Below, piece by piece: positions 3,108 through 44,200 of a stretch of 64,000 bases of DNA (the stretch's first letter is position 1; each line of letters begins with the position of its first letter). Made by a program: the position numbers and the translations under genes. The DNA comes from Eledone cirrhosa (taxonomy: Eukaryota): contig CAXHJY010001298.1 of assembly GCA_964016885.1 (NCBI GenBank), positions 1 to 64,000 on the forward strand, read 5' to 3'. The notes beneath the pieces were generated by a model. It was not told the DNA's origin and did not search any database. It saw nothing but the letters and a program-made list of their open reading frames with translations.

Positions 3108-4872
3108 ATAACGTCCATCTTCCACGCTTGCATGGGTTTGGACGGGAATTTTCCCACTTGAGGCAAGATTGGTTGTCTTGCTCGTATAGGACTGTCTGGC
3201 AGGTTTTCTACAGCTGGATGCCCTTCCTAACACCAACCACGTTTACAGTGTTGACTGGGAGGTTTTTACCGTGTTACCTACACGGCCACGTTACAGCGTG
3301 GACTGTGTGTTTTTTTTGTCGTGACACCTACACGACCTCATTTGTTTCGGCCTGGATGTTGTGGTACCAACATAACTTTACATTGAAAGGAGTGGTGTGG
3401 ATGGGGTGGGGCTAGTGTGACGGGGGTGTATTTTTGTTAGAGGTGCCTACTGACTGTAGGTTTCGCTTTGTACTTAGGCAAGGCGGGTCTTCTGTATTAC
3501 TGTGTAGCGCCAAAGATCTCGGTCCAGTGATATTGTCTTGGAGAGGTGTAAGTGTGTGAGGTTGGAATTTATCAAGTCGTCCCGGGTTTTTCTGGGTCTG
3601 CCTACTCCGTGGCTACCGTCTATTTTTATCACCCTGCACTTTTTTATACAGCTGTCGTCTTTCATGCGCATCACGTGACCGTACCAACGTAGTCTTCTCT
3701 CGAGTAAACCACATCTGATCCCTCTTATTCCTAATTTCTCCCTTAGTTCGTTTATGCTTTGCCGTTCACGTATATTACTATTACACATCCAGCGGAGCAT
3801 GCAAGCTTCATTCCTCTCCAGTCTGCGTATATCCTCTGCACACAATGCCCAAGTCTCACTGTCATGTAACATTGCTGTTCGTATGCAGGCATCATACATC
3901 CTGCCTTTCATTTTTAGAGAGAACCCTTTAGCGGCCAATAGTGGTATAAGCTCTCTGAACTTTTTCCATCCTGTTCTGACTCTAGCTACTGTACTTTCAG
4001 AGCACCCTCCACCACTGCTGATTTTGTCACCCAGGTAACGGAAGGTGTCCACTATTTCTATAGAACCATCTGTGCAATGGAATGAGCTAGTATTCTGTGG
4101 GCACTTGCTGCTACTTATTGCACCTGAGCACCGGCCACATATAAAATCTATATTCTTAGTTAGCTTACCTGTGATCCCACTACATCTTTTATGCACCCAT
4201 ACTTTGCATTTTGGACATAAAATGGAGTTTCTGCCTACTCCTTTCCTACATACTGAGCATGGCCATTTCCCAGATGGGACCGGTGCCTTATTTTCCTTCC
4301 TACAAACTAGGTCTTAGACAGGTTAATTTAAGGCCTTTTGATTCTAGGCCGTGCTTCCATGTTTGGAATTTCTTCTCTAGTTCAGCCATTGATTCAGCTA
4401 TGAGCGTTAGATCATTTGTGTATGAGAGTTCCCATGGGCAGCCGGTCTTGAACTCCTCTGTTATAGCCTGAAGGGCAATAATAAATAGTAGGGGGCTAAG
4501 AACGGAGCCCTGATGAACACCAACTTTTACGCTAAACTCTTCACTATATTCGTTGTTAATTCTAACCTTGCTGACTGTTTCTTTATACATGGCTTGTATA
4601 GCTCTCACAACCCATTCATCAACACCCTAGTTTTCTAAGAGCCCACCAGATAATGGAGCGGGGGACTCTGTCAAAGGCTTTCTCCAAATCATTTTGAAAA
4701 TCAAGAATTTGGAGGGATTTAGTAAAATAAGTAACTTTCTTAATATTTATCTGGTATTTGAAATATGAATTAACAAAGGTTCTTACATAAAATTACAATG
4801 AAAGGTTTTTCAAACAAGCAATTTTATATTGTAAAACCAACACTGGCTTTCAACAGTTTGGTATCAGATAGG
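3030..4872. mobile_element. piggyBac-type MITE (family A) split by the RTE insertion
   Basis: TTAA at 3026-3029 and 4873-4876; termini CC(C)TTTTG..ACCA / GGTATCA..AGG(G); body matches other copies once the RTE is removed. Confidence 0.65.
3084..4684 (-). mobile_element. 5'-truncated RTE-clade LINE, inactivated (RT C-terminal half plus 3' UTR)
   Basis: ORFs 4300..4608 and 3474..4196 align with the 642-aa ORF; YADD changed to YTND; frameshifting deletion near 4310; (CAT)n tail; TSD CAAATCAT at 3076-3083 and 4685-4692. Confidence 0.92.
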
Positions 4873-7024: not shown

Positions 7025-7062
7025 GTGTGGAAAAGAATTAACTGAAATAAATTTTTCTGCAG

Positions 7063-7306
7063 GTTATTAAACTTGGATGTTGACAAATGGACCCATTTAA
7101 ACTGTGCCTTGTGGTCTCATGAAGTGTATGAGACATTAAATGGTGCTCTAATCAACGTGGAACAATCGTATCGACGTGGGCTTTCACTAGAATGTTCTAT
7201 TTGCCATAAGAATGGAGCAACACTTGGTTGTTTCAAATTCCGATGTTCCAATATATATCATCTTGGATGTGCTATTAAAGATGGATGTGTATTCTATCAA
7301 GATAAA
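7063..7306 (+). CDS. KMT2C: KMT2C/D exon, extended PHD finger
   Basis: LLNLDVDKWTHLNCALWSHEVYETLNGALINVEQSYRRGLSLECSICHKNGATLGCFKFRCSNIYHLGCAIKDGCVFYQDK; ctgcag acceptor, gtaagt donor. Confidence 0.95.
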
Positions 7307-7784
7307 GTAAGTCATTCTGATATTTGTTTCTATAAATACCTTAATAATGATTTAAGTTACTTAGAATTTCTTCTATATATAATCTCATCTTTTGTAAATG
7401 TCAAGATTGCTTCTATGTTGCCATCATCATCATCATTGTCATCATTATGATTTGAAAGGTCAGACAACCATGCCTTGTTCCTACTTTCTCTTTTGGCTTA
7501 GTTTTTACTGCTAGATGCCCTTCCTAATGCCAACAACTTTACAGCATCTACTAGGTGCATTTTACCAGCTCTACCACTTTAAAGAATTACTAGGCACATT
7601 TTATTGTGGCACCAGCACTAGAGTGGTTTTTGTACTCTGCAAGACTGAAGAGTCCTCTGTACTCTAAATTGTCTCCATTCAATTCTCATGGAGTATTTTC
7701 TATATGCTTGTATACATAATCAATTTACTACAGTATTTGTTTTTGTATGCAGTTGTTTAACCCTTTCTATATTATATTCTATTT

Positions 7785-17150: not shown

Positions 17151-17905
17151 TATAACAGAGATTCACTCAGAAGGCAAGATTTCAGCAGATACTATCTTCT
17201 GAGAGAGGTTCTGGGGGAGGGGGTGTATTATTAATAATCTATTCAGTTAACTGAAAGATCAACTTGAAAATTTTGATACAAATTAATTTATCATATTTGT
17301 CTGAACACACAAGTCAAATAAATTGTAACTGTAATGTTGAAAATTACTTAATAATATGTAGTTAATGATTATCTTTGATAATTAGTACTAAATTCCCCTA
17401 GTACACTTTATAAAATCTTATCTAATCCATGCTATCATGGGGGTGGTGAATGATGTAGAAACGATGATAACAAGGATGTATAATTCTAAATGTTAAATTT
17501 GTTTAAAACTTTATAATGACATTGTTTAAAAATCTGTTGTATAAAACTTATTGATGAGGCAGATGACGAGAGATTTTAAAAAAATTGACTATTTAACATA
17601 GCATGATATGTATTACACAATATTGCTGGATCCAATTGTTGAGGAATGATGGAAGTGACTGGGTGATAGAAATGAATGTTGATGGAAGTAGAGCATGGAG
17701 AAGACCCAAAAAGATATGGCTAAACATTTTGGAGGAAATATAAACCAAGGGTTTAATGATGGTGACACAGGTGAGGGAAAAATAAGGAGGCCTGTCATGA
17801 TGCCTACTACGTTAATCCATGCTTTAGCAGGGAAGATAGCCTTAAAACAATTGTTGTTTTAACATGTATATATATATATATATATTGAATTCTCTTCTGT
17901 TTCAG

Positions 17906-18088
17906 AATCGTGGTGTCTACATGTTCCGCAGTGATACAGACACAGTTATAGATGCCACAATGGTTGGAGGCTTAGCTCGTTACATCAACCATTCATGCAA
18001 TCCCAACTGTGTAGCTGAAGTTGTGCCCTTTGAAAAAGAAAGTAAAATTATTATCATTACAAGCAGGAAAATCGTGCGAGGAGAAGAG
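17906..18088 (+). CDS. KMT2C: KMT2C/D exon, SET catalytic core
   Basis: NRGVYMFRSDTDTVIDATMVGGLARYINHSCNPNCVAEVVPFEKESKIIIITSRKIVRGEE (RYINHSCxPN motif); tttcag / gttagt. Confidence 0.97.
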
Positions 18089-19619
18089 GTTAGTAAACAA
18101 ATATCCTCTTCTATATTATAATAACTGCCCATCTGTTACATAAATGCTATGGTCTGTTAAAAATGTTCTAAAACTTTTATTTAGAATTCATGGAACACTA
18201 ATGTTAGACAAAAAATGGTGGGGCAAATGTTCTAAATGCAGAAAACAGCATTCTTTGTAAACAGTTATTTCACATGTAAAACAATGGATTATGTACAGTA
18301 ATTGTTTCTACTCTTGGTACAAGGTCAGCAATTTATAGGTTAGGGGAAAGTCGATTAAATCAATCCAAGTGTGTTACTTTATTTTATCGACCCCATAAGG
18401 AAGAAAGACAAAGCTAACCTTGGCTGCATTTGAAGTCAGAACATAAAGGGACGTAACTGTATACCTGCCAGCATAGTGTTGATGATGACAGTCCACAGCT
18501 TGTAAACTTGTTCTGGGTAACTTCGTAGATCCTCAAATAGCAATACCCCTCTTGATAACAGTTATTGCAGACATCCAGCATATGTCAAATGCATTGTACA
18601 ATTCCCACAAATGCCTTCGTTCACCTTCTCCAGCCCCCATTAATGTCTTTCTATTTTAAAGGCAATATTTGCTTGTCAGTTTTTTTAAATATTTATGTCT
18701 GCTCCCAGAGATTGATATATCGCAGGTTCAGAAGATACTGTATAAGGGTGAAAGCTAAAATTGTTTGCTTAAACTTTTAATCCCTACTAAGAATAAATGT
18801 GTGTGTAAATAAATGAATAAATAAAGTTAATATGTTCGACAAAACAGACAAGACATGATTAGAAAAACTTATTTAATTATACATTTTAACATGTGTTTCA
18901 TTATTGAGTTATGTCATGGTCTACGGGCCTGTTAAGAAATATTAATATTTCCAATCATTCTTCTGCAATGCCACAGACCTCACAACTCAACAAATCTCAA
19001 GAAAATGAATACAATTTTTAGAATTTGAGTGATATTATTGAATGTAAAGAGGGAGGATTGATGAGTTGACCTATGGGCTTCCAGCAATATTTGGTGCTAC
19101 ATAAATGAGACATGTCATTGATTGAGAAATAATTAATCTATAGATCTCTTTAATATCTATAAATCTCTTAGTAGTATCAACTTGACAGTTACAGATGCCA
19201 CTTGATGCCACTTGTCTATGTAATAAAACCAGCTAATTGAAAGAGATAGAAGTGATAGAAATTGAGAAATGGAGGTAGAGTGATAGGTTCTAATTATGGG
19301 TTAGCTAGGGCTATAATTAGAAAATGTTTTTAGGTATTTGTGTTTACAGTTGAATATCTTATCTTGTCAAGAGTTCATTCGTTTCTTTTCTGTCAAGATT
19401 TCTTTTACTTCCATCGCACAAAGATCACAATCCATTCTTTCACATCAGTAGGCGTGGGCAAATCTATATAGGTCCTTTGCACACAGTGCCCATGTCTTAC
19501 TGCCATGCAGCATTGCAGTTCATATACACACCTCATACAATCTGCTCTTCATTTTGAGGGAGAAGCTTTTATAGGTAGCAAGTTGTAGCAGCTCCCTGAA
19601 CCTTCTTCATCCTGTCCTC

Positions 19620-21067: not shown

Positions 21068-23354
21068 CATCATCATCATCATCATCATCAACGTTTAACG
21101 TCCGTGTTCCACGCTTGCATGGGTTTGGACGGGGGTAGTCCCACTTGAGGCAAGAGTGATTGTCTTGCTCGCATAGGACTGTCTGGCAGGTTTTCTACAG
21201 TTGGATGCCCTTCCTAACACCAACCACATTTACAGTGTGGGTCTGGGAGGTTTTTACCGTGTTGCCTACACGGCCACATTACAGCGTGGACTGTGTGTTT
21301 TTTTGTCGTGACACCTACACGATCTCATTTGTTTCGGCCTCGATGGCGCGGCACCAACATAACTTTACATAGAACGGGGTGGTGTGGATCGGGTGGGGGT
21401 GGGGGTGGTGGGACGGGGTGTATTTTGTTAGAGATGCCTACTGGCTGGAGTAGGTTTTACTATATATTTAGGTAAGGCGGGTCTTCTCTGTTACTGAGTA
21501 CCGCCAAAGGTCTCGGTCCAGTGACATTGTCTTGGAGAGGTGTAAGTGTGTGATGTCGGAGTTTATCAGCTCGTCCCAGGTTTTTCTAGGTCTGCCTATT
21601 CCGTGACTACCGTCTATCTTTATTGCCCTGCACTTTGTTATACAGCTATCGACTTTCATGCGCATCACGTGTCCATACCAACGTAGCCTTCTCTCGAGTA
21701 AACAACATCTGATCCCTCTTATCTCTAATTTATTCCTTAGTTCGTTTATGCTTTGCCGTTCATGTATATTACTGTTACACATCCAGCGGAGCATGCAAGC
21801 TTCGTTCCTCTCTAGTCTGCGTATATCCTCTGCACACAATGCCCAGGTCTCACTGCCATGCAGCATTGCTGTTCGTATGCAGGCATCGTACAACCTGCCT
21901 TTCATTTTTAGTGAGAACCCTTTAGCAGCTAATAGTGGTATAAGCTCTCTGAACTTTTTCCAACCAGTTCTGACTCTAGCTACAGTACTTTCAGAGCACC
22001 CTCCCCCACTGCTGATTTTATCGCCCAGGTAACGGAAGCTGTCCACTATTTCTATAGAACCCTCTGCGCAATTGAAAGAGCTAGTAGTTTGTGGGCACTT
22101 GCTGCTACTTATTGCACCAGAGCACCGGCCACATGTAAAATCTATGTTCTTAGTTAGCTTACCTGTGATCCCACTACATCTTTTATGCACCCATACTTTG
22201 CATTTAGGACATAAAATGGAGTTTCTACCTACGCCTTTCCTACACACCGAGCACGACCATTTCCCAGAAGGGACCGCCGCCTTGTTTTCTTTCCTACAAA
22301 CTAGTACTTTGGTCTTAGCCAGGTTAATTTTAAGTCCTTTTGACTCTAGGCCGTGCTTCCATGTTTGGAATTTCTTCTCTAGCTCGGCCATTGATTCCGC
22401 TATGAGTGTCAGGTCGTCTGCGTATAGGAGTTCCCATGGGCAGCCTGTCTTGAACTCCTCTGTTATAGCCTGAAGGGCAATAATAAATAGTAGTGGACTG
22501 AGAACAGAGCCCTGATGGACGCCGACTTTTACGCTAAACTCTTCACTATATTCGTTGTTAATTCTAACCTTGCTGACTGTTTCTTTATACATGGCTTGTA
22601 TAGCCCTCACAAGCCATTCGTCAACGCCTAGTTTTCTAAGAGCCCACCAGATAATGGAGCGGGGGACTCTGTCGAAGGCTTTCTCCAAGTCGACAAAAGC
22701 TAAGTAGAGGGGTTTACCTTTAGCTAGGTACTTCTCCTGTAGTTGTCGTACTATGAAAAGAGCGTCTGTGGTACTTTTGCCTGACACAAACCCGAACTGC
22801 ATTTCATCTAGGTCAATTCTCTCTCTGATTAGTTGCGCTATTACTCTTTCCGTGACCTTCATGACCTGGTCGATTAATTTAATGCCTCTATAGTTACTCC
22901 TATCTAGGGCGTCTCCTTTACCCTTATAACAGTTAACGATGATGCTGCTATGCCAGTCCTTCGGAACAACCCCGTTCTGTACGACTTGGTTAACTATGCG
23001 GGTGACCATGGTGTGTCCCACCGTGCCAGATGCCTTCAGCATCTCAGCAACTATTTCCGAAGGCCCAGCCGCCTTACCAGTCTTCATATCCTTGATTGCC
23101 TTACTTATTATACTCCCCTCGACTAACACTGCTGGTCCCTCTATTGGGTCGATATGGGGGAGACTGCCTTTCTCCCAATTATTCTCCTCATTTAGAAGCC
23201 TTTCATAGTGACACTTCCAAGCTACCTTCTTATCAGCGTCGGTGATGGCAAGTGTGCCATCGTCGTTTAGTACACACTTCTCCCCGACAATATCACGGTT
23301 TTCCTTGACGCATTGCCTAGCAATCCTGAACACCTCACGTTTTTGGTCATCGCG
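21068..23354 (-). mobile_element. Young 5'-truncated RTE-clade LINE with uninterrupted RT ORF (APE domain missing)
   Basis: ORF 21468..23396: NYRGIKL, QFGF, FVDLEKAFDRV, GVHQGSVLSPLLF, YADD, FRYLG, RRLRWYGHVMR, GRPRKTW; ~400-nt 3' UTR; (CAT)n tail on +; candidate TSD ATATGTAT at 21060-21067 and 23355-23362. Confidence 0.95.
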
Positions 23355-23401
23355 ATATGTATGTATATATGTATATAAAACCAATCTTTTTCTCATTGCA
23401 G

Positions 23402-23494
23402 CTCACTTATGATTACAAATTTGACTTTGAAGATGATCAGCACAAAATTCCTTGCTTGTGTGGGGCTCCAAACTGCAGAAAATGGATGAACTAG
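23402..23494 (+). CDS. KMT2C: KMT2C/D final coding exon, SET end and post-SET, stop TAG
   Basis: [30 protein letters not shown]; ttgcag acceptor; near-identical to the KMT2C C-terminus. Confidence 0.97.
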
Positions 23495-30793: not shown

Positions 30794-30916
30794 GGTGTGG
30801 GATGCTTAAAGCGTCCGTATGCGGTAGGCCGTTTGAGCACCCGATGCTCTTACAGAGCAGAGTATAATATCACATAAGAAACGGAGAATCAGTGGTGCGA
30901 CTAATTAAAATTTATT

Positions 30917-31010
30917 AGACATACAATCGTTTCTCTGGCGACCAGCTTGAGGCACAATCGATGCGAGGATAGAACCTGACTCTGAAATCTCAAGATCCTC
31001 AGATACGTCT
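30917..31010 (-). ncRNA. Type I hammerhead ribozyme motif with ~62-nt expanded helix II
   Basis: Minus strand AGACGTAT-CTGAGGA-TCT...AGA-GAAA-CGA-TT-GTATGTCT; helix I 8 bp with two GU pairs; helix III imperfect; AATAAA immediately 3'. Confidence 0.6.
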
Positions 31011-31709
31011 CGATCTTTCGAAGCAGAGTTTCCAAATGGAAACTCTGCTTTTAATTTTAATTCGTCGCACCACTGATTCTCCGTTTATTATGTGATTATA
31101 TATATATAAGAACAAAATAAGGTTTCGCGTTGAGGTTTTATTTTTTAGGCTCAGTTTTGAACGCTTCACCTATCTGTGAGTGAAACGTTCGTAACTGAGC
31201 CGAATCAATAAAAATATCAATGTGAGACCTCATTTTGTTCTTTATATATCTAATCTAATCTGGCCGAGTAAATAAGAACCAGGGCCGCCCCTAGTAGCAT
31301 TGGATTTGGTGTACTTCATATTTGTTTCGGTTGCTGAATATAACCAGGGATCGCTGCTTCTCCTGAAGGTCAATAGTTCTCTTCTAACTCGAGCGGGAGC
31401 GCCTTTCAATTGTCAATTTACATTGATCATCTGCAAAGCCACATTGTTCTCAGAACCACTAAACCAGTCTTTTGATGCGTGCAGCTGGAACTACTGCCAT
31501 CCATTGTTTTGGCAGGATTTCTATTTTAGATGGCCGTTGACACTTTGTCAGGTTTTGTTTTTTCTCCTGCAGGGTGTCCAAAATCACCCTCCCTACCAAG
31601 TAAACTTGGTGGAACTACCGGTTTAGTCGCCGACAACCCAACCATATATACACTCTGCTATAGCATAGATTGGTACCTTCCTCAGTAAACTATGAATCTA
31701 ATGAATTAC

Positions 31710-35999: not shown

Positions 36000-36640
36000 G
36001 AATTGAACTATTCGCTGCTGTTTGGCTGCGAGCCAAAACGGAGGCAGGCGAGACCAATGAAGACTCGAGCCGCATTTCGAGTTGACCTGCATTTCATGTC
36101 ACCCCAGTTGGTATTTTGCATAATAGGGAACAGTGAGGCCATTACAAACCCCAATAATTAGAGCTGGCTCGAGCTTCCGATCTATATTTGGTTCTGACGT
36201 CTTGCAGAGAAACTCGCTGATGAATGAGCGACTGAAGATGATAGTTGATAGATAGCAAGTAGGTCAGCAGTGCACGGAAACCTAGGCTACCGAACCTCAA
36301 GAGGAGTTTCACTTGTTGCCATCTGGTGGCGTCGACATTAAGGAAGCAGGTGAGTTCATTGCAGTGATAGATGATGGCGTCAAGTTTCGTGAGGTGTCCC
36401 GTCTGAGGATGATAAGACGCACCGTGCAGCGTGAAGGGGTGTTTGTGGAGGGCAAAGCAGTTCCTCAGGAGGATGAGCGCAGTATACGCATCGATGCAGC
36501 GCAGTATGTCTATCGTTAGGTCAGCTTGTCTGGCCGCCAAGTACTTTCGTATGGCTTTCGAGGGAATTGGACAGCCGAAGATGCAGGCAGCGTCCCACGG
36601 AATTAGAAGTAACCTAGTCAGAATGGATTGAATGTTCAAT
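36000..36640 (-). mobile_element. Degenerate CRE-clade-like non-LTR retrotransposon fragment (RT thumb region)
   Basis: ORF 36142..36639 ALILLRNCFALHK...RWQQVKLLLRFGSLGFR resembles ALxLLRxCxxxPKL...WxQAxLPVRxGGLGLR; locally GC-rich. Confidence 0.6.
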
Positions 36641-36861
36641 AAGACGCCGAGTTTTGCCGTGACTCACATTTATCAATATCGTGTCTGAGATAGGGCTGGG
36701 ATGATTTTCTGAAGATCAAACTATAATTGAAGCAATTAAAGAGGTTTAACAATTCCAGACTTAATTTCCTCCTGTTATGTAATCAGAAACAGAATTTGAT
36801 TGTATTCCAAGTTGATTCCTTGATTTTCTGGTTTGCCAAGATGATAGAATGATAATTATTT

Positions 36862-36862
<1 letters not shown>

Positions 36863-36921
<59 letters not shown>

Positions 36922-37392
36922 TCACACATACTCACACACATACTCACTCACACAGACACACACACACACATACACATACACACACATACTCACACACACA
37001 CAGACACACACACAAGCAGACAGACAGACACACACACACATTCCAGGTTGAACTTAGAAGCAAAAAGAAATAAAAAACAAATAAACTAAGAAAGAATATG
37101 TAAACAAGAAGTGTTTATTTCTGTTGTAAAGAATTCTAATTATTGTTGTAAGTAAACTAATTGTGAAAGTAATAGAAATATTTTTATGATGCAGTTTATA
37201 GTGTGTGTGTGTATATATATAAGTGTGTGTCTATATATAAGTGTGTGTGTGTGTGCGTGTGTGTGTGTGTATGTGTCTATATATAAGTGTGTGTATGTAT
37301 GTATGTGTGTGTGTTTGTATGTATATGTGTGTCTATATATAAGTGTGTGTGTGTATGTATGTGTGTGTGTGTATGTGTGTGTGTCTATATAT

Positions 37393-37440
<48 letters not shown>

Positions 37441-37665
37441 GTGTATGTATGTATGTGTGTGTGTGTCTATAAAAACAATCCCACCCTTATCCACGACATT
37501 GCACTGTCCAGGGCTGACAAGAAAGTCAGATGCTTTTGTGTTTATCCCACGTGTTTGCAGCTTTCTGTGCAAGTTTGCCATCTTTCTCCCCCCCTCTCTC
37601 TCTCTCTCTCTCTCCCCCCTCTCTCTCTCATATATATATATATACACACACATACATATACATGA
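36863..37665. repeat. Opposed (CA)n-rich and (TG)n-rich compound microsatellites
   Basis: (CA)n at 36863-37040, (TG/TA)n at 37200-37470, (CT)n/(TA)n at 37590-37660. Confidence 0.9.
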
Positions 37666-37747
37666 ATGGACCTCTTATTTTTATCTAAAGACATTTTTTC
37701 CAATTCCAACCCGCCCGTCCACTCAATCTATTTTATTTCTCATTCTT

Positions 37748-37783
37748 TCTTCTGATGAAGGACTAGAATCCGAAACGTTAAGA
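37748..37783 (+). ncRNA. Minimal type I hammerhead ribozyme (Penelope-like element type)
   Basis: TCTT-CTGATGA-A-GGA-CTAGAA-TCC-GAAA-CG-TT-AAGA: intact core, 4-bp helix I, 3-bp helix II, palindromic ACGT helix III; ~85 nt upstream of (TA)n. Confidence 0.75.
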
Positions 37784-37867
37784 CCCTCTTCCTGCTATAT
37801 CAAGCGTTAACCTAATATATTCCTTCCATATACTGTACCGATTGTGTTGTTATTTCTGTTTACCTTT

Positions 37868-37944
<77 letters not shown>

Positions 37945-37953
37945 TCTGTTTAC

Positions 37954-38000
<47 letters not shown>

Positions 38001-39253
38001 ATAATTGTTTCTACTTTAGGCACAAGGCCAGCAATTACCCAGTGCATTACTGGTACTTTATTTTATCGACTCCGTAAGGATGAAAGGCAAAGTTAACCTC
38101 GGCGGGATTTGAACTCAGATCGTAAAGGGACGTAACTATGAGGGAAAGCATGGCGTCCGACCCTCTACCGATAATGAAATGACAGGAGGCTGGATTTGTT
38201 TAAATCCTTGAAAGGTTTATTATACTATGATCATTTCAATGACCGGGTTCCGTATGAATCCGGTGATATCATCAGGTATTCGAAATATAATACGTGAATG
38301 TAATAGATAAAATCCATGGGGCTGAAAATCGAGGACCCGAGGGCGACCGCTATCCTGGTCCTTCAACCTCACCCGGTCGCCCTCGAGTGACGTGGCTAAA
38401 GTTTACAGTGTGATACTACCGGTCAGATAAACGAAAACAGAAAGGGATGGGAACATAAGTTAGCGTCAATCTCATGCCACAAGATAAAAGAAAGAAAGAA
38501 AGGAAGGAAGGAGAGAGAAGAAGGGGGAAGGAAGAAGAAGAGAAGCCAGGGTTAATGTCCGCTATAAGAAGAAAGACAACTACTACCGGTCAGATATAGG
38601 CAAACAAAAGGGGAAGGAAGATAAGTCTGCGGGAGGAAGACAGGAAGAGGGGAGAAGAGAAGGAAGAGAAGAGAAGAGAAGGAAGAGAAGGGAGAAGTAG
38701 AAAAGTAAGGGTTGATGGCTACAAGAAGGAAGATAGAAAGAAAGAGGAAGAAAGGTCGATATTAATGTCAGACCACAGTCAGGCCAGGAGTGGTGCGAGA
38801 AAATTTTCACAGGGACCCGCATCTTAGCAGAGATGAATATATTGGGGGTCAGTGTGTTACAATGTTTAGACTTATAGGATGAAGTTAAAAAATTAATAAT
38901 CAATATTCAATATTAAAGAGGTTAGAAAATTTAAAGTTAAACAGTTTAACATTTTCAGGTTGATATATCTAATAGTTCCGATTTGATCTGTAATTTAAAG
39001 GTACTATGTGGCGGTTAAAAGACCGGCCGCGCCCCGGGCCCAAGGCGAATTAAGCTACGCCGAGTATTTTCATTTACCGAAAGAAGGGGAAATTTATTTT
39101 TACAAGCACTCCAGGTATATATATATATATATATGTAAATATATATTTAGCCTGATAGTGGGATTTAGAACCCTCTGAGAAATGGAAAAATACAGCGAGA
39201 GGCTCTATTTCTAATTTCAAGCTCGTTCGCTGTTTCAAAAGTATACTTACTTG

Positions 39254-39310
<57 letters not shown>

Positions 39311-39315
<5 letters not shown>

Positions 39316-39612
39316 AAGATGAATATAAAATGAAAGTGCTTTTATAAAGGAATTTATTAGGCATTGACATATGTTTCTGTAACAGACGGAATACCTATGT
39401 ATCGCTGCTTGCGTAATCATATAATGTTAGCAAGTATTCGATAGCAAATTTGATTATACAAAAGTGATTATACATTTGCTATCGAATACTTGCTAACATT
39501 ATATGATTACGCAAGGAGCGATACATAGGTATTCCGTCTGTTACAGAAACATATGTCAATGCCTAATAAATTCCTTTATAAAAGCACTTTCATTTTATAT
39601 TCATCTTTTCTA
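39311..39612. repeat. Near-perfect inverted repeat, 139-bp arms, 24-nt spacer
   Basis: 39311-39449 is the reverse complement of 39474-39612 with one mismatch seen; abuts (TA)n. Confidence 0.95.
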
Positions 39613-39714
39613 CATTTTCTCCGGAATATAATTTATACTCGTTGAGCAAACCTACACGTGCGCTGTTCATCTCTAACGTGACGATATTTTATCACTACAT
39701 TATTGATAACTTGA

Positions 39715-39782
<68 letters not shown>

Positions 39783-39961
39783 AAGTATGACCCCGACGGC
39801 AGAGCTCAAGCTGTTTCGACGGCTATTTCTGGACTAAATTAGAATTTTTAGCCTGGTGAATCACCAGGGTCATACTTTTTGCTATTTCCCACTCTACTAC
39901 CTTAAGTATTGAGTACTCTGGTGTGTTATGGTCCATCTGGTTCCTTACCACAATTCTTTTG

Positions 39962-40045
<84 letters not shown>

Positions 40046-40093
40046 TAAAAGGGAATAAAAGAATCATTATTGCATCATTTACATATTTAATTG

Positions 40094-40183
40094 CATATTA
40101 CGTATGTTTCGCTGCCGATCAGCTCGAGGAACAATCGATTAATGTTCTATCTTGCCTCTGGAATCGGAAGCTCCTCAGATATG
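40094..40183 (-). ncRNA. Type I hammerhead ribozyme with ~61-nt expanded helix II
   Basis: Minus strand CATAT-CTGAGGA-GCTTCCGAT...ATCGGCAGC-GAAAC-ATAC-GTA-ATATG: all conserved core nucleotides present, helix I 5 bp, predicted cut after GUA (between 40099 and 40098). Confidence 0.8.
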
Positions 40184-40352
40184 TGCTCTCACGCGTAGAC
40201 ACGCGTCTAAGTGTTTACATGCTGTCAAAATGGTTGACAGAGAGACCCTCCTTCTTCCAGTCAGTTCCATGAGCCAACACACTTCTCCTTGTCCTGCTCC
40301 TCTTTCAATATTTTCCATATTTCATCTGTCACCCATCTCGTGGAATGCCTCT

Positions 40353-41078
40353 CTGTTGACCACTGGCCGCTCGTCTCTGACCTGTTGACCACTAGCCGCT
40401 CGTCTCTGTCCTGTTGACCACTAGCCGCTCGTCTCTGTCCTGTTGACCACTGGCCGCTCGTCTCTGTCCTGTTGACCACTAGCCGCTCGTCTCTGTCCTG
40501 TTGACCACTGGCCGCTCGTCTCTGTCCTGTTGACCACTAGCCGCTCGTCTCTGTCCTGTTGACCACTAGCCGCTCGTCCCTGTCCTGTTGACCACTGGCC
40601 GCTAGTCTCTGTCCTGTTGACCACTGGCCGCTCGTCTCTGTCCTGTTGACCACTGGCCGCTAGTCTCTGTCCTGTTGACCACTGGCCGCTCGTGTCTGTC
40701 TTGTTGACCACTGGCCGCTCGTCTCTGTTCTGTTGACCACTGGCCGCTCGTCTCTGTCCTGTTGACCACTGGCCGCTCGTCTCTGTCCTGTTGACCACTG
40801 GCCGCTAGTCTCTGTCCTGTTGACCACTGGCCGCTCGTCTCTGTTCTGTTGACCACTGGCCGCTCGTCTCTGTCCTGTTGACCACTAGCCGCTCGTCTCT
40901 GTCCTGTTGACCACTGGCCGCTCGTCTCTGTTCTGTTGACCACTGGCCGCTAGTCTCTGTCATGTTGACCACTGGCCGCTCGTCTCTGTCCTGTTGACCA
41001 CTGGCCGCTCGTCTCTGTTCTGTTGACCACTGGCCGCTCGTCTCTGTCATGTTGACCACTGGCCGCTCGTCTCTGTCC
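40353..41078. repeat. 29-bp GC-rich minisatellite, ~25 copies
   Basis: Unit CTGTTGACCACTGGCCGCTCGTCTCTGTC. Confidence 0.97.
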
Positions 41079-41244
41079 ACTGAGGTATTTTTGTCCATCG
41101 CTGTTTTTGACATGACTTAGCTGTTTTAATAGCTGTTCTTGCGATGAGCTGTCTCATGTATGTATTCAAATGCCGACAAAGTCAGAAAACAGCACAGCTC
41201 CCATTACTTTCGCAAACATTTTTTCACGCTCAGAGTTGCTGAAA

Positions 41245-44200
41245 CATGGAACACACTACCTGCATGAGTTGTTAGCTGTCAAGACACTGCATCCTTTAAA
41301 TCCTCCATGGAACACAATACCTGCATCATTTGTTAGCTGTCGAGACACTGCATCCTTTCAAAGCTCCATGGAACACACTACCGGCATGAGTTGTTAGCTG
41401 TCAAGACACTGCATCCTTTAAAACCTCCATGGAACACACTACCTGCATGAGTTGTTAGCTGTCAAGACACTGCATCCTTTAAATCCTCCATGGAACACAA
41501 TACCTGCATCATTTGTTAGCTGTCGAGACACTGCATCCTTTCAAAGCTCCATGGAACACACTACCGGCATGAGTTGTTAGCTGTCAAGACACTGCATCCT
41601 TTAAAACCTCCATGGAACACACTACCTGCATGAGTTGTTAGCTGTCGAGACACTGCATCCTTTAAAACCTCCATGGAACACACTACCTGCATCAGTTGTT
41701 AGCTGTCGAGACACTGCATCCTTTAAAACCACCATGGAACACACTACCTGCATGAGTTGTTAGCTGTCAAGACACTGCATCCTTTAAAACCTCCATGGAA
41801 CAAACTACCTACATCAGTTGTTAGCTGTCGAGACACTGCATCCTTTAAAACTTCCATGGAACACAATACCTGCATCAGTTGTTAGCTGTCAAGACACTGC
41901 ATCCTTTAAAACCTCCATGGAACACACTACCTGCATCAGTTGTTAGCTGTCAAGACACTGCATCCTTTAAAACCTTCATGGAACACACTACCTGCATCAG
42001 TTGTTAGCTGTCGAGACACTGCATCCTTCAAAACCTCTACGGAACACACTACCTGCATCAGTTGTTAGCTGTCAAGACACTGCATCCTTTAAAACCTCTA
42101 TGGAACACAGTACCTGCATCAGTTGTTAGCTGTCGAGACACTGCATCCTTTCAAAGCTCCATGGAACACACTACCTGCATGAGTTGTTAGCTGTCAAGAC
42201 ACTGCATCCCTTAAAACCTCCATGGAACACACTACCTGCATGAGTTGTTAGCTGTCAAGACACTGCATCCTTTAAAACCTCCATGGAACAAACTACCTAC
42301 ATCAGTTGTTAGCTGTCGAGACACTGCATCCTTTAAAACTTCCATGGAACACACTACCTGCATCAGTTGTTAGCTGTCGAGACACTGCATCCTTTAAAAC
42401 CACCATGGAACACACTACCTGCATGAGTTGTTAGCTGTCAAGACACTGCATCCTTTAAAACCTCCATGGAACAAACTACCTACATCAGTTGTTAGCTGTC
42501 GAGACACTGCATCCTTTAAAACTTCCATGGAACACACTACCTGCATCAGTTGTTAGCTGTCAAGACACTGCATCCTTTAAAACCTCCATGGAACACACTA
42601 CCTGCATCAGTTGTTAGCTGTCAAGACACTGCATCCTTTAAAACCTTCATGGAACACACTACCTGCATCAGTTGTTAGCTGTCGAGACACTGCATCCTTC
42701 AAAACCTCTACGGAACACACTACCTGCATCAGTTGTTAGCTGTCAAGACACTGCATCCTTTAAAACCTCTATGGAACACAGTACCTGCATCAGTTGTTAG
42801 CTGTCGAGACACTGCATCCTTTCAAAGCTCCATGGAACACACTACCTGCATGAGTTGTTAGCTGTCAAGACACTGCATCCCTTAAAACCTCCATGGAACA
42901 CACTACCTGCATGAGTTGTTAGCTGTCAAGACACTGCATCCTTTAAAACCTCCATGGAACAAACTACCTACATCAGTTGTTAGCTGTCGAGACACTGCAT
43001 CCTTTAAAACTTCCATGGAACACACTACCTGCATCAGTTGTTAGCTGTCAAGACACTGCATCCTTTAAAACCTCCATGGAACACACTACCTGCATCAGTT
43101 GTTAGCTGTCAAGACACTGCATCCTTTAAATCCTCCATGGAACACAATACCTGCATCATTTGTTAGCTGTCGAGACACTGCATCCTTTCAAAGCTCCATG
43201 GAACACACTACCGGCATGAGTTGTTAGCTGTCAAGACACTGCATCCTTTAAAACCTCCATGGAACACACTACCTGCATGAGTTGTTAGCTGTCGAGACAC
43301 TGCATCCTTTAAAACCTCCATGGAACACACTACCTGCATCAGTTGTTAGCTGTCGAGACACTGCATCCTTTAAAACCACCATGGAACACACTACCTGCAT
43401 GAGTTGTTAGCTGTCAAGACACTGCACCCTTTAAAACCTCCATGGAACAAACTACCTACATCAGTTGTTAGCTGTCGAGACACTGCATCCTTTAAAACTT
43501 CCATGGAACACACTACCTGCATCAGTTGTTAGCTGTCAAGACACTGCATCCTTTAAAACCTCCATGGAACACACTACCTGCATCAGTTGTTAGCTGTCAA
43601 GACACTGCATCCTTTAAAACCTTCATGGAACACACTACCTGCATCAGTTGTTAGCTGTCGAGACACTGCATCCTTCAAAACCTCTACGGAACACACTACC
43701 TGCATCAGTTGTTAGCTGTCAAGACACTGCATCCTTTAAAACCTCTATGGAACACAGTACCTGCATCAGTTGTTAGCTGTCGAGACACTGCATCCTTTCA
43801 AAGCTCCATGGAACACACTACCTGCATGAGTTGTTAGCTGTCAAGACACTGCATCCCTTAAAACCTCCATGGAACACACTACCTGCATGAGTTGTTAGCT
43901 GTCAAGACACTGCATCCTTTAAAACCTCCATGGAACAAACTACCTACATCAGTTGTTAGCTGTCGAGACACTGCATCCTTTAAAACTTCCATGGAACACA
44001 CTACCTGCATCAGTTGTTAGCTGTCAAGACACTGCATCCTTTAAAACCTCCATGGAACACACTACCTGCATCAGTTGTTAGCTGTCAAGACACTGCATCC
44101 TTTAAAACCTCCATGGAAGACACTACCTGCATCAGTTGTTAGCTGTCGAGACACTGCATCCTTCGAAACCTCTACGGAACACACTACCTGCATCAGTTGT

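Follow-up and report, generated by a model that had tools for sequence, protein, structure and literature searches.

A conserved accessory arm on helix II of hammerhead motifs in Hydra-type Penelope-like retroelements of Eledone cirrhosa

Hammerheads of Penelope-like retroelements (PLEs) cut poorly in vitro, and in one case the element's own protein was shown to be needed. For the minimal PLE hammerheads, the accessible sections of PMC4209133 (Cervera and de la Pena 2014) describe terminal repeats, thousands of dispersed single truncated copies, a dimer-type helix III (as do those of PMC6765202) and a helix II of 6-8 bp closed by a small loop, without describing a further domain; a U3-A8 core is also reported there. 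In the Hydra clade, which includes an Octopus family, hammerheads stand at a 3' position after an ORF in which a GIY-YIG endonuclease (EN) is C-terminal, belong to type I with a short palindromic helix III and frequently have a 10.1/11.1 mismatch, in elements with a preference for (TA)n targets (Craig et al. 2021, PMC8557442, including its File S2). Their spacers between the two core halves are about 12-25 nt long, and Hydra-1_Obim has a 23-nt spacer of other sequence (PMC8557442).

We analysed a window of 64,000 nt from Eledone cirrhosa (GCA_964016885.1, contig CAXHJY010001298.1, positions 1 to 64,000 of the forward strand), which carries a related motif. It shares all the Hydra-clade traits named above apart from the spacer, and it shares with the minimal hammerheads the PLE terminal repeat (seen for subfamily A), the dispersed truncated copies, the dimer-type helix III, palindromic and unstable at the family level, and the 6-8 bp of helix II, while the U3-A8 core occurs here in a second family. 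Minimal hammerheads have about 4-8 bp and a short loop in helix II, whereas here the core halves are 58-63 nt apart and enclose a conserved internal loop.

The window copy and its surroundings

An earlier reading, made from the letters alone, had placed a hammerhead on the minus strand of the window, and direct inspection agreed with it: CUGAGGA, GAAA and GUA are all present, the core halves are separated by 61 nt, and a 5-bp helix I can form (Table 1). Its outer arm stem with one mismatch was also found (nine positions, one U.C), together with the CAG/CUG pairing, the AUUAAA hexamer 3' of the motif and the nearby (TA)n tract. The inner pairings GAGG/CCUC and GAACA/UGUUC that it proposed depend on the window copy's own mutations and had to be given up as decay artefacts. 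The cut site is predicted between 40099 and 40098. Within the arm, CUGAUCG near 40122 was considered as another core and rejected by eye for want of a helix I partner.

Table 1. Positions of the hammerhead motif, its parts and related features in the window
Feature	Position	Strand	Remark
Second motif copy, subfamily E	30915..31011	-	72 bits, covariance model R1
Fragment of family 2 (different Hydra-type family)	39780..39960		related loci L100-L129, L237
(TA)n tract, insertion target	39963..40045		adjoins the 3' end of most copies
Subfamily A 3' end (pseudo-LTR piece), 5'-truncated, from a Hydra-type Penelope-like element	40046..40214	-	
U-rich tract	40065-40047	-	3' of AUUAAA
Poly(A)-signal-like hexamer AUUAAA	40086..40091	-	7 nt past predicted cut site
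Helix I, 3' strand	40094..40098	-	sequence reading and subfamily comparison
Second core half GAAA, minimal helix III, GUA	40099..40110	-	GAAA 40110-40107, GUA 40101-40099
Extended helix II arm, 61 nt	40111..40171	-	folding and subfamily comparison
Arm, stem IIa	40170-40163 with 40119-40112	-	
Arm, bulge	40162-40161	-	
Arm, stem IIb	40160-40158 with 40122-40120	-	
Arm, conserved loop	40157-40154 and 40126-40123	-	
Arm, capping hairpin	40153-40127	-	
First core half CUGAGGA	40172..40178	-	sequence reading
Helix I, 5' strand	40179..40183	-	pairs with 40094-40098

Taken alone, the window copy is weak evidence, since the 121-nt region around it folds no better than shuffles (z=0.14), its spacer folded alone reaches z=-1.58, and bare core halves 30-60 nt apart are expected by chance about once per 64 kb (3 seen vs 0.96 expected, with a pattern whose gap was one base too short to take in the window motif itself). 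The significance of the motif comes from the family-level tests. Compared with the column majority of 52 subfamily A copies, the window copy departs at 8 of 97 positions, and its letters at 40155, 40152 and 40102 are present in 2, 4 and 1 of the 52 copies, respectively. Its arm is mutated at 40155, 40152, 40148 and 40133, so that the changes hit the conserved loop and the capping stem besides helix III. In the family, the 8-mer of helix III is palindromic, with a self-duplex of -7.0 kcal/mol in a typical A copy; in the window copy the palindrome is broken at 40102 and the self-duplex drops to -2.1 kcal/mol. The monomer hairpin of helix III comes to +2.4 kcal/mol. Subfamily A is an older one, with a mean divergence of 7.7%. 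The copy in the window is a single truncated relic that has lost the palindrome and two arm positions, and it is probably inactive. The second copy, of subfamily E, has a damaged helix I, and a short inverted piece is found at 31053-31085.

The surroundings are rich in repeats. Next to the motif lies a 29-bp array with 25 copies (40353-41078), and a 22.7-kb satellite at 41245-64000 adjoins it, whose periods of 122, 183 and 305 point to a unit of about 61 bp. Flanked by (TA)n tracts, 39375-39549 is a long and almost perfect inverted repeat, which gave a sub-threshold match to a miRNA family and is probably another inverted element end. Besides, there are RT frames at 21468-23402 and 3474-4626 (-), one of them open for 644 codons, which we take to be an RTE-like LINE, and frames at 7046-7450 and 17846-18121 (+), which presumably resemble a KMT2C/D-type gene's PHD and SET exons. 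In family 2, the core of the hammerhead is UUGANAA (U3-A8); its helix II of 54-56 nt is unrelated, helix III has 5 bp, and loop 3 contains a palindrome. This family gave 2,267 first-look candidates, with a full element in L237. Helix II has evidently been lengthened at least twice in this genome. Further hammerhead-like motifs, some recurring across loci, were seen in L002, L058, L068, L066, L083, L004 and L064, with spacers of 13, 14, 18, 26, 36, 39 and 49 nt.

Host element, copies and subfamilies

The host is a Hydra-type PLE, an assignment made by motifs and not by a tree with reference RTs, on the ground that the RT, linker and EN motifs fit the published description of the clade. In locus L235, an inverted terminal piece, the RT, the EN, the UTR and the motif follow each other colinearly, and RWR (RW[KR]), DKT, CxCX5C and a GIY-YIG-like stretch occur in that order in different frames of a broken ORF; RW[KR]/RWK-like, DKT, the CxCX5C linker and the C-terminal GIY-YIG are Hydra-clade traits according to the accessible part of PMC8557442. 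A 930-nt 3' UTR could be aligned end to end across three independent loci, and 8 of the 30 endonuclease loci have the motif downstream of the GIY-YIG-type EN match and on its strand. The link to an ORF was established for subfamily A and family 2 only, with one locus for subfamily D, so the claim of a Penelope-type type I hammerhead variant, made in the sequence-only reading, is borne out for subfamily A. For the EN, Pfam gave a weak GIY-YIG match only (E 0.063), a protein search with the piece linked to subfamily A gave no match, and a tree of the EN fragments of this genome left 8 of its 15 inner branches open.

Several other assignments were considered. The related RT in L069 has its named homologues in Argonauta, Octopus and one sea slug, which makes an octopod the likely host. 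The L069 element was rejected as the source of the motif's ORF because both of its repeats carry a hammerhead of their own with a 17-nt spacer. In L062 and L067, (TA)n tracts separate the motif from the RT pieces 3' of it, which hence were left uncounted. A Naiad, with its N-terminal endonuclease, does not agree with L235, where the EN is 3' of the RT, and a non-LTR retrozyme would form short ORF-less head-to-tail tandem units, whereas the copies here are dispersed or inverted and joined to an ORF. They sit in (TA)n, many of them with an inverted truncated piece upstream. Copy ends cluster at about +50 and about +130-160 nt past the cut site in all six subfamilies, and the window copy ends at the nearer of the two; in the DNA search, the matches of other copies start at positions 130-166 of the 301-nt query, mostly at 136-144. 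The tail between the two family 3' ends is about 90 nt long, vs 30-40 bp in the papers compared. Because it extends beyond the poly(A) hexamer, the template RNA is likely a read-through transcript.

Searching the 3.0-Gb genome at the DNA level gave 2,625 first-look candidates; 40 of them were scored, which besides the window itself comprised 39 places with matches of 84-90% to 40050-40214. Subfamily B (1,770 candidates) was reached through a neighbouring diverged copy, and a covariance model built on A and B then found subfamilies C, D, E and F among the examined loci (2,205, 3,234, 2,389 and 801 candidates, respectively); all these are candidate counts, which may overlap and are not copy numbers. 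Column majorities were taken from ungapped copies (52 A, 23 B, 16 E, 25 C, 18 D and 19 F). The arms of the six subfamilies share 49-95% identity, with 49-66% between distant ones. As for patterns, the 3'-half pattern had 19,116 matches in the genome vs 11 for the reversed control, and CUGANGA followed by the 5' half of the arm had 4,888 vs 13 for the control. The motif had no match among the viral sequences searched, and the 8 matches in metagenomes, none of which had helix III and the GUH ending, were taken as chance; there is thus no credible match outside this genome among the viral and metagenome sequences searched.

Conservation of the arm and the core

The six subfamilies share one arm plan, which consists of an 8-position stem IIa with one mismatch (two in subfamily C), a 2-3-nt bulge, 3 bp, an ARUC/YGAG loop and a 25-28-nt capping hairpin, all within a spacer of 59-63 nt (6 of 6 subfamilies in both respects). 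The loop is near-invariant and lies about one helical turn from the core. We ran the pairing test over five lineages, with E dropped because it is near B, and it turned out that 63 of 70 cells were paired vs 50.4 in shuffles, with 14 both-side changes vs 5.9, the shuffles in both cases ignoring relatedness among the five lineages.

Since subfamilies C, D, E and F came from a model favouring this structure, a less biased set was taken with the 3'-half pattern, in which stem IIa is unused as an anchor. The sample covered the first 30 listed loci and 40 stretches of the other 70 listed places, picked for variety, and held 73 matches. A 5' half could be recognised in 42 of them, and the other 31 were set aside as truncated or decayed. 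Among these listed matches, stem IIa was paired at 70.8% in 39 distinct stem sets; with the strands swapped, pairing came to 56.1% and never exceeded 62.8% in 10,000 shuffles. Position 3 of the stem is a pyrimidine mismatch in 29 of the 39 sets. The spacer is 58-63 nt in 42 of 42 listed matches, and the 5' strand of the loop reads AGUC or AAUC in 41 of 42, where the anchor tolerated one mismatch. Single copies of A-F fold to the shared shape, though the margin over shuffles is only moderate for the individual arms (z -0.4 to -2.9). As unpaired letters and spacing are fixed while the stems turn over, the arm appears to be under selection for something beyond the closure of helix II. The extra domain on helix II that the sequence-only reading proposed is thus conserved with compensatory changes, but helix II is extended by it rather than replaced.

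Covariation in the compared sequences supports hammerhead helices I, II and III, with helix I open, as in type I. The first three pairs of helix I are kept in 15 of 15 family cells with both strands varying, and helix III is self-complementary in 20 of 20 cells at the family level; among the listed matches, its free inner four bases are self-complementary in 54 of 73 vs 25.9 in shuffles. Of the 52 A copies, 40 have the poly(A) hexamer, as do most copies of the other five subfamilies, and it lies at most 22 nt downstream in 54 of the 73 listed pattern matches. Most copies of five subfamilies have an intact CUGANGA...GAAA...UH core (A 32 of 52, B 18 of 23, E 16 of 16, D 13 of 18, F 16 of 19). 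Deviant cores were found too. The CCGUCGA core (U4C and A6U) had 1,603 matches vs 22 in the control and was amplified in two separate lineages (e.g. L317-L324), while the core of subfamily C has U4C and an extra base, reading CCGAAGGA in 22 of 25 C copies, which diverge by 2%. These deviant lineages keep the arm, and C3-G8, G5, G12, GAAA and UH are still fixed there. Further deviant cores read CCGAAGGA or CUGAAAGA. Changes at A6 reduced activity in the natural variants covered by the accessible part of PMC3088659.

We also looked for known tertiary motifs in the arm. The palindromic apex is present in subfamily A only and was rejected as a kissing loop, and neither a K-turn nor a SECIS consensus fitted by eye. 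A pseudoknot to the flanks was rejected as well: for it, an 8-9-bp complement about 25-30 nt past the cut exists in the tested copies of A, B and C and is absent in those of E, D and F; complements to the 5' flank in A and C stem from inverted pieces of the same element. No Watson-Crick contact of the loops or the apex with the flanks is common to all six subfamilies. About 25-30 nt past the cut site in L026, L131 and L161, a CUGAUU stretch can pair over 8-9 bp with the conserved loop's 5' strand, which is a possible alternative fold.

Possible functions of the arm and comparison with described systems

Of the readings considered, we favour the arm as a putative binding site for the element's own RT-endonuclease protein, tentatively and with slightly less than even confidence. 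The sequence of the loop, and not just its pairing, is fixed while the adjoining stems change, as would be the case in a recognition site. Protein binding is favoured by the persistence of the arm in lineages with a deviant core, by the failure of any base-paired tertiary contact to hold across all families, and by the Anolis element PAc, whose hammerhead was cleaved only with the ORF protein present (accessible part of PMC11167929). It is weakened by the fixed loop letters, which would suit an RNA tertiary contact equally, and by the finding that hammerhead mutants in the Anolis system left in vitro insertion unimpaired, i.e. independent of cleavage (same part of PMC11167929). For the clade as a whole the arm seems dispensable, since Hydra-type elements in the same genome have a 17-nt spacer (L069) or an unrelated arm (family 2).

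In a tandem or read-through RNA, helix III would let two motifs join in an 8-bp helix and be cut after GUH, a dimeric step suggested by the palindrome and by the published PLE hammerheads. A protein bound to the arm would label the RNA as a template and assist the cut or set its timing, as in the Anolis PLE, and a cut 7 nt ahead of the poly(A) signal would moreover remove the tail of the mRNA. A more specific proposal is a protein-gated natural hammerhead, in which the protein on the arm loop switches dimeric cleavage beside the poly(A) signal and thereby decides between message and retrotransposition template, with CCGUCGA as a new core active with such help only; we regard this as unlikely.

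The evidence was also weighed against three other explanations. The near-fixed distance between core and loop (8 positions, the 2-3-nt bulge and 3 bp in 6 of 6 subfamilies) suggests a geometric constraint, and together with the constant spacer in all 42 listed matches it would suit an RNA-only tertiary scaffold, in which either the bulge or the ARUC/YGAG loop would contact helix I or the dimer partner and stand in for the usual loop 1-loop 2 contact; contacts between helices I and II do speed natural hammerheads (accessible part of PMC3088659). However, no loop or apex complement in the flanks is common to all six subfamilies, helix I has only about 5-7 bp with flanks that cannot be aligned, and the arm is kept in deviant-core lineages, so that a scaffold is possible but somewhat improbable. 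The same deviant lineages, two amplified with U4C and A6U and subfamily C with U4C and an extra base, could instead point to a non-cutting cis signal for template recognition, 3'-end choice or poly(A) control, whose core is decaying from a ribozyme ancestor; the lower activity of A6 variants (accessible part of PMC3088659) and the poly(A) hexamer adjoining the motif in all six subfamilies fit with this. Yet even in the deviant lineages the other core positions named above stay fixed, 4,888 matches retain CUGANGA with the 5' half of the arm, and helix III remains self-complementary under sequence change (54 of 73 vs 25.9), as a dimeric ribozyme requires, and we find such a signal quite unlikely.

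The arm might also be a tolerated insertion, if helix II accepts extensions and pairing is kept only for the folding of the core. Hammerhead-like motifs with spacers of 13, 14, 18, 26, 36, 39, 49 and 54-56 nt in the examined loci, the recurrent lengthening of helix II in this genome and the spacer of about 54 nt in a spike-moss element (PMC8557442) would agree with it. Neutrality, however, predicts the reverse of what was found, namely unpaired loop letters and stem-bulge-stem spacing that are fixed while paired positions change, which makes this explanation highly improbable.

Protein binding or not, the diverged subfamilies in one genome delimit an accessory domain that is discrete, keeps its loop letters fixed and occurs with natural variants of the core. 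Stem II switches have been engineered, and if the arm gates cleavage it would be their natural counterpart; if it is inert, its interest as a structural variant would be modest. About 19,000 hammerhead-type motifs in one animal genome are missed by Rfam and by length-limited descriptors, in line with what the sequence-only reading had anticipated for such searches. Run on 36000-44000 of the window, Rfam found no hammerhead at E<=5, and on eight other loci it gave RF00163 once, at 16 bits against a cut-off of 34; no known Rfam family, which would have spoken against novelty, was matched above its gathering cut-off, as the other matches were microsatellite- and hairpin-driven, miRNA-type and below their own cut-offs.

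Among the described systems, the novelty claimed for the motif would hold for the conserved arm, which has no match in the systems compared, and not for the length of the spacer. Long helix II spacers alone are not new, since core halves are also distant in PLE-X1_sMoe and PLE-X1_sTam (about 54 nt in sMoe, a spike-moss element) and 35-50 nt apart in the HHR_half_core cases of eight Naiads, one from Octopus (PMC8557442). These belong to other clades (EN-less or with N-terminal EN) and are single consensus entries, for which PMC8557442 reports neither conserved architecture nor covariation, and no shared sequence was seen; short motif strings had unrelated matches only in its supplement, where line breaks may hide strings. 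PAc (Frangieh et al. 2024, PMC11167929) is likewise a PLE hammerhead with two element ends parted by a "tail", but as far as its accessible part goes, it has an ordinary helix II at the start of the ORF and a tail of 30-40 bp vs about 90 here, and a dedicated binding arm is not described. The discontinuous Clec2 hammerhead (accessible part of PMC6155905) is also natural, in a 3' UTR and with a long insertion, which however lies in helix I of a type III hammerhead in a host gene and has 150-1500 nt. The accessible main text of a 2026 Octopus repeat annotation (PMC13282606) contains neither the word hammerhead nor ribozyme, and the arm domain is not described in the accessible parts of PMC10085705, PMC6155905 and bioRxiv 2026.07.22.740005. 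In the literature compared, which did not include Repbase, Dfam and the PLE hammerhead variants of Lunse et al. 2016/2017, a description of the arm was not found. In conclusion, the conserved accessory arm on a PLE hammerhead appears to be an undescribed variant of these known systems, which is abundant and structurally well supported.
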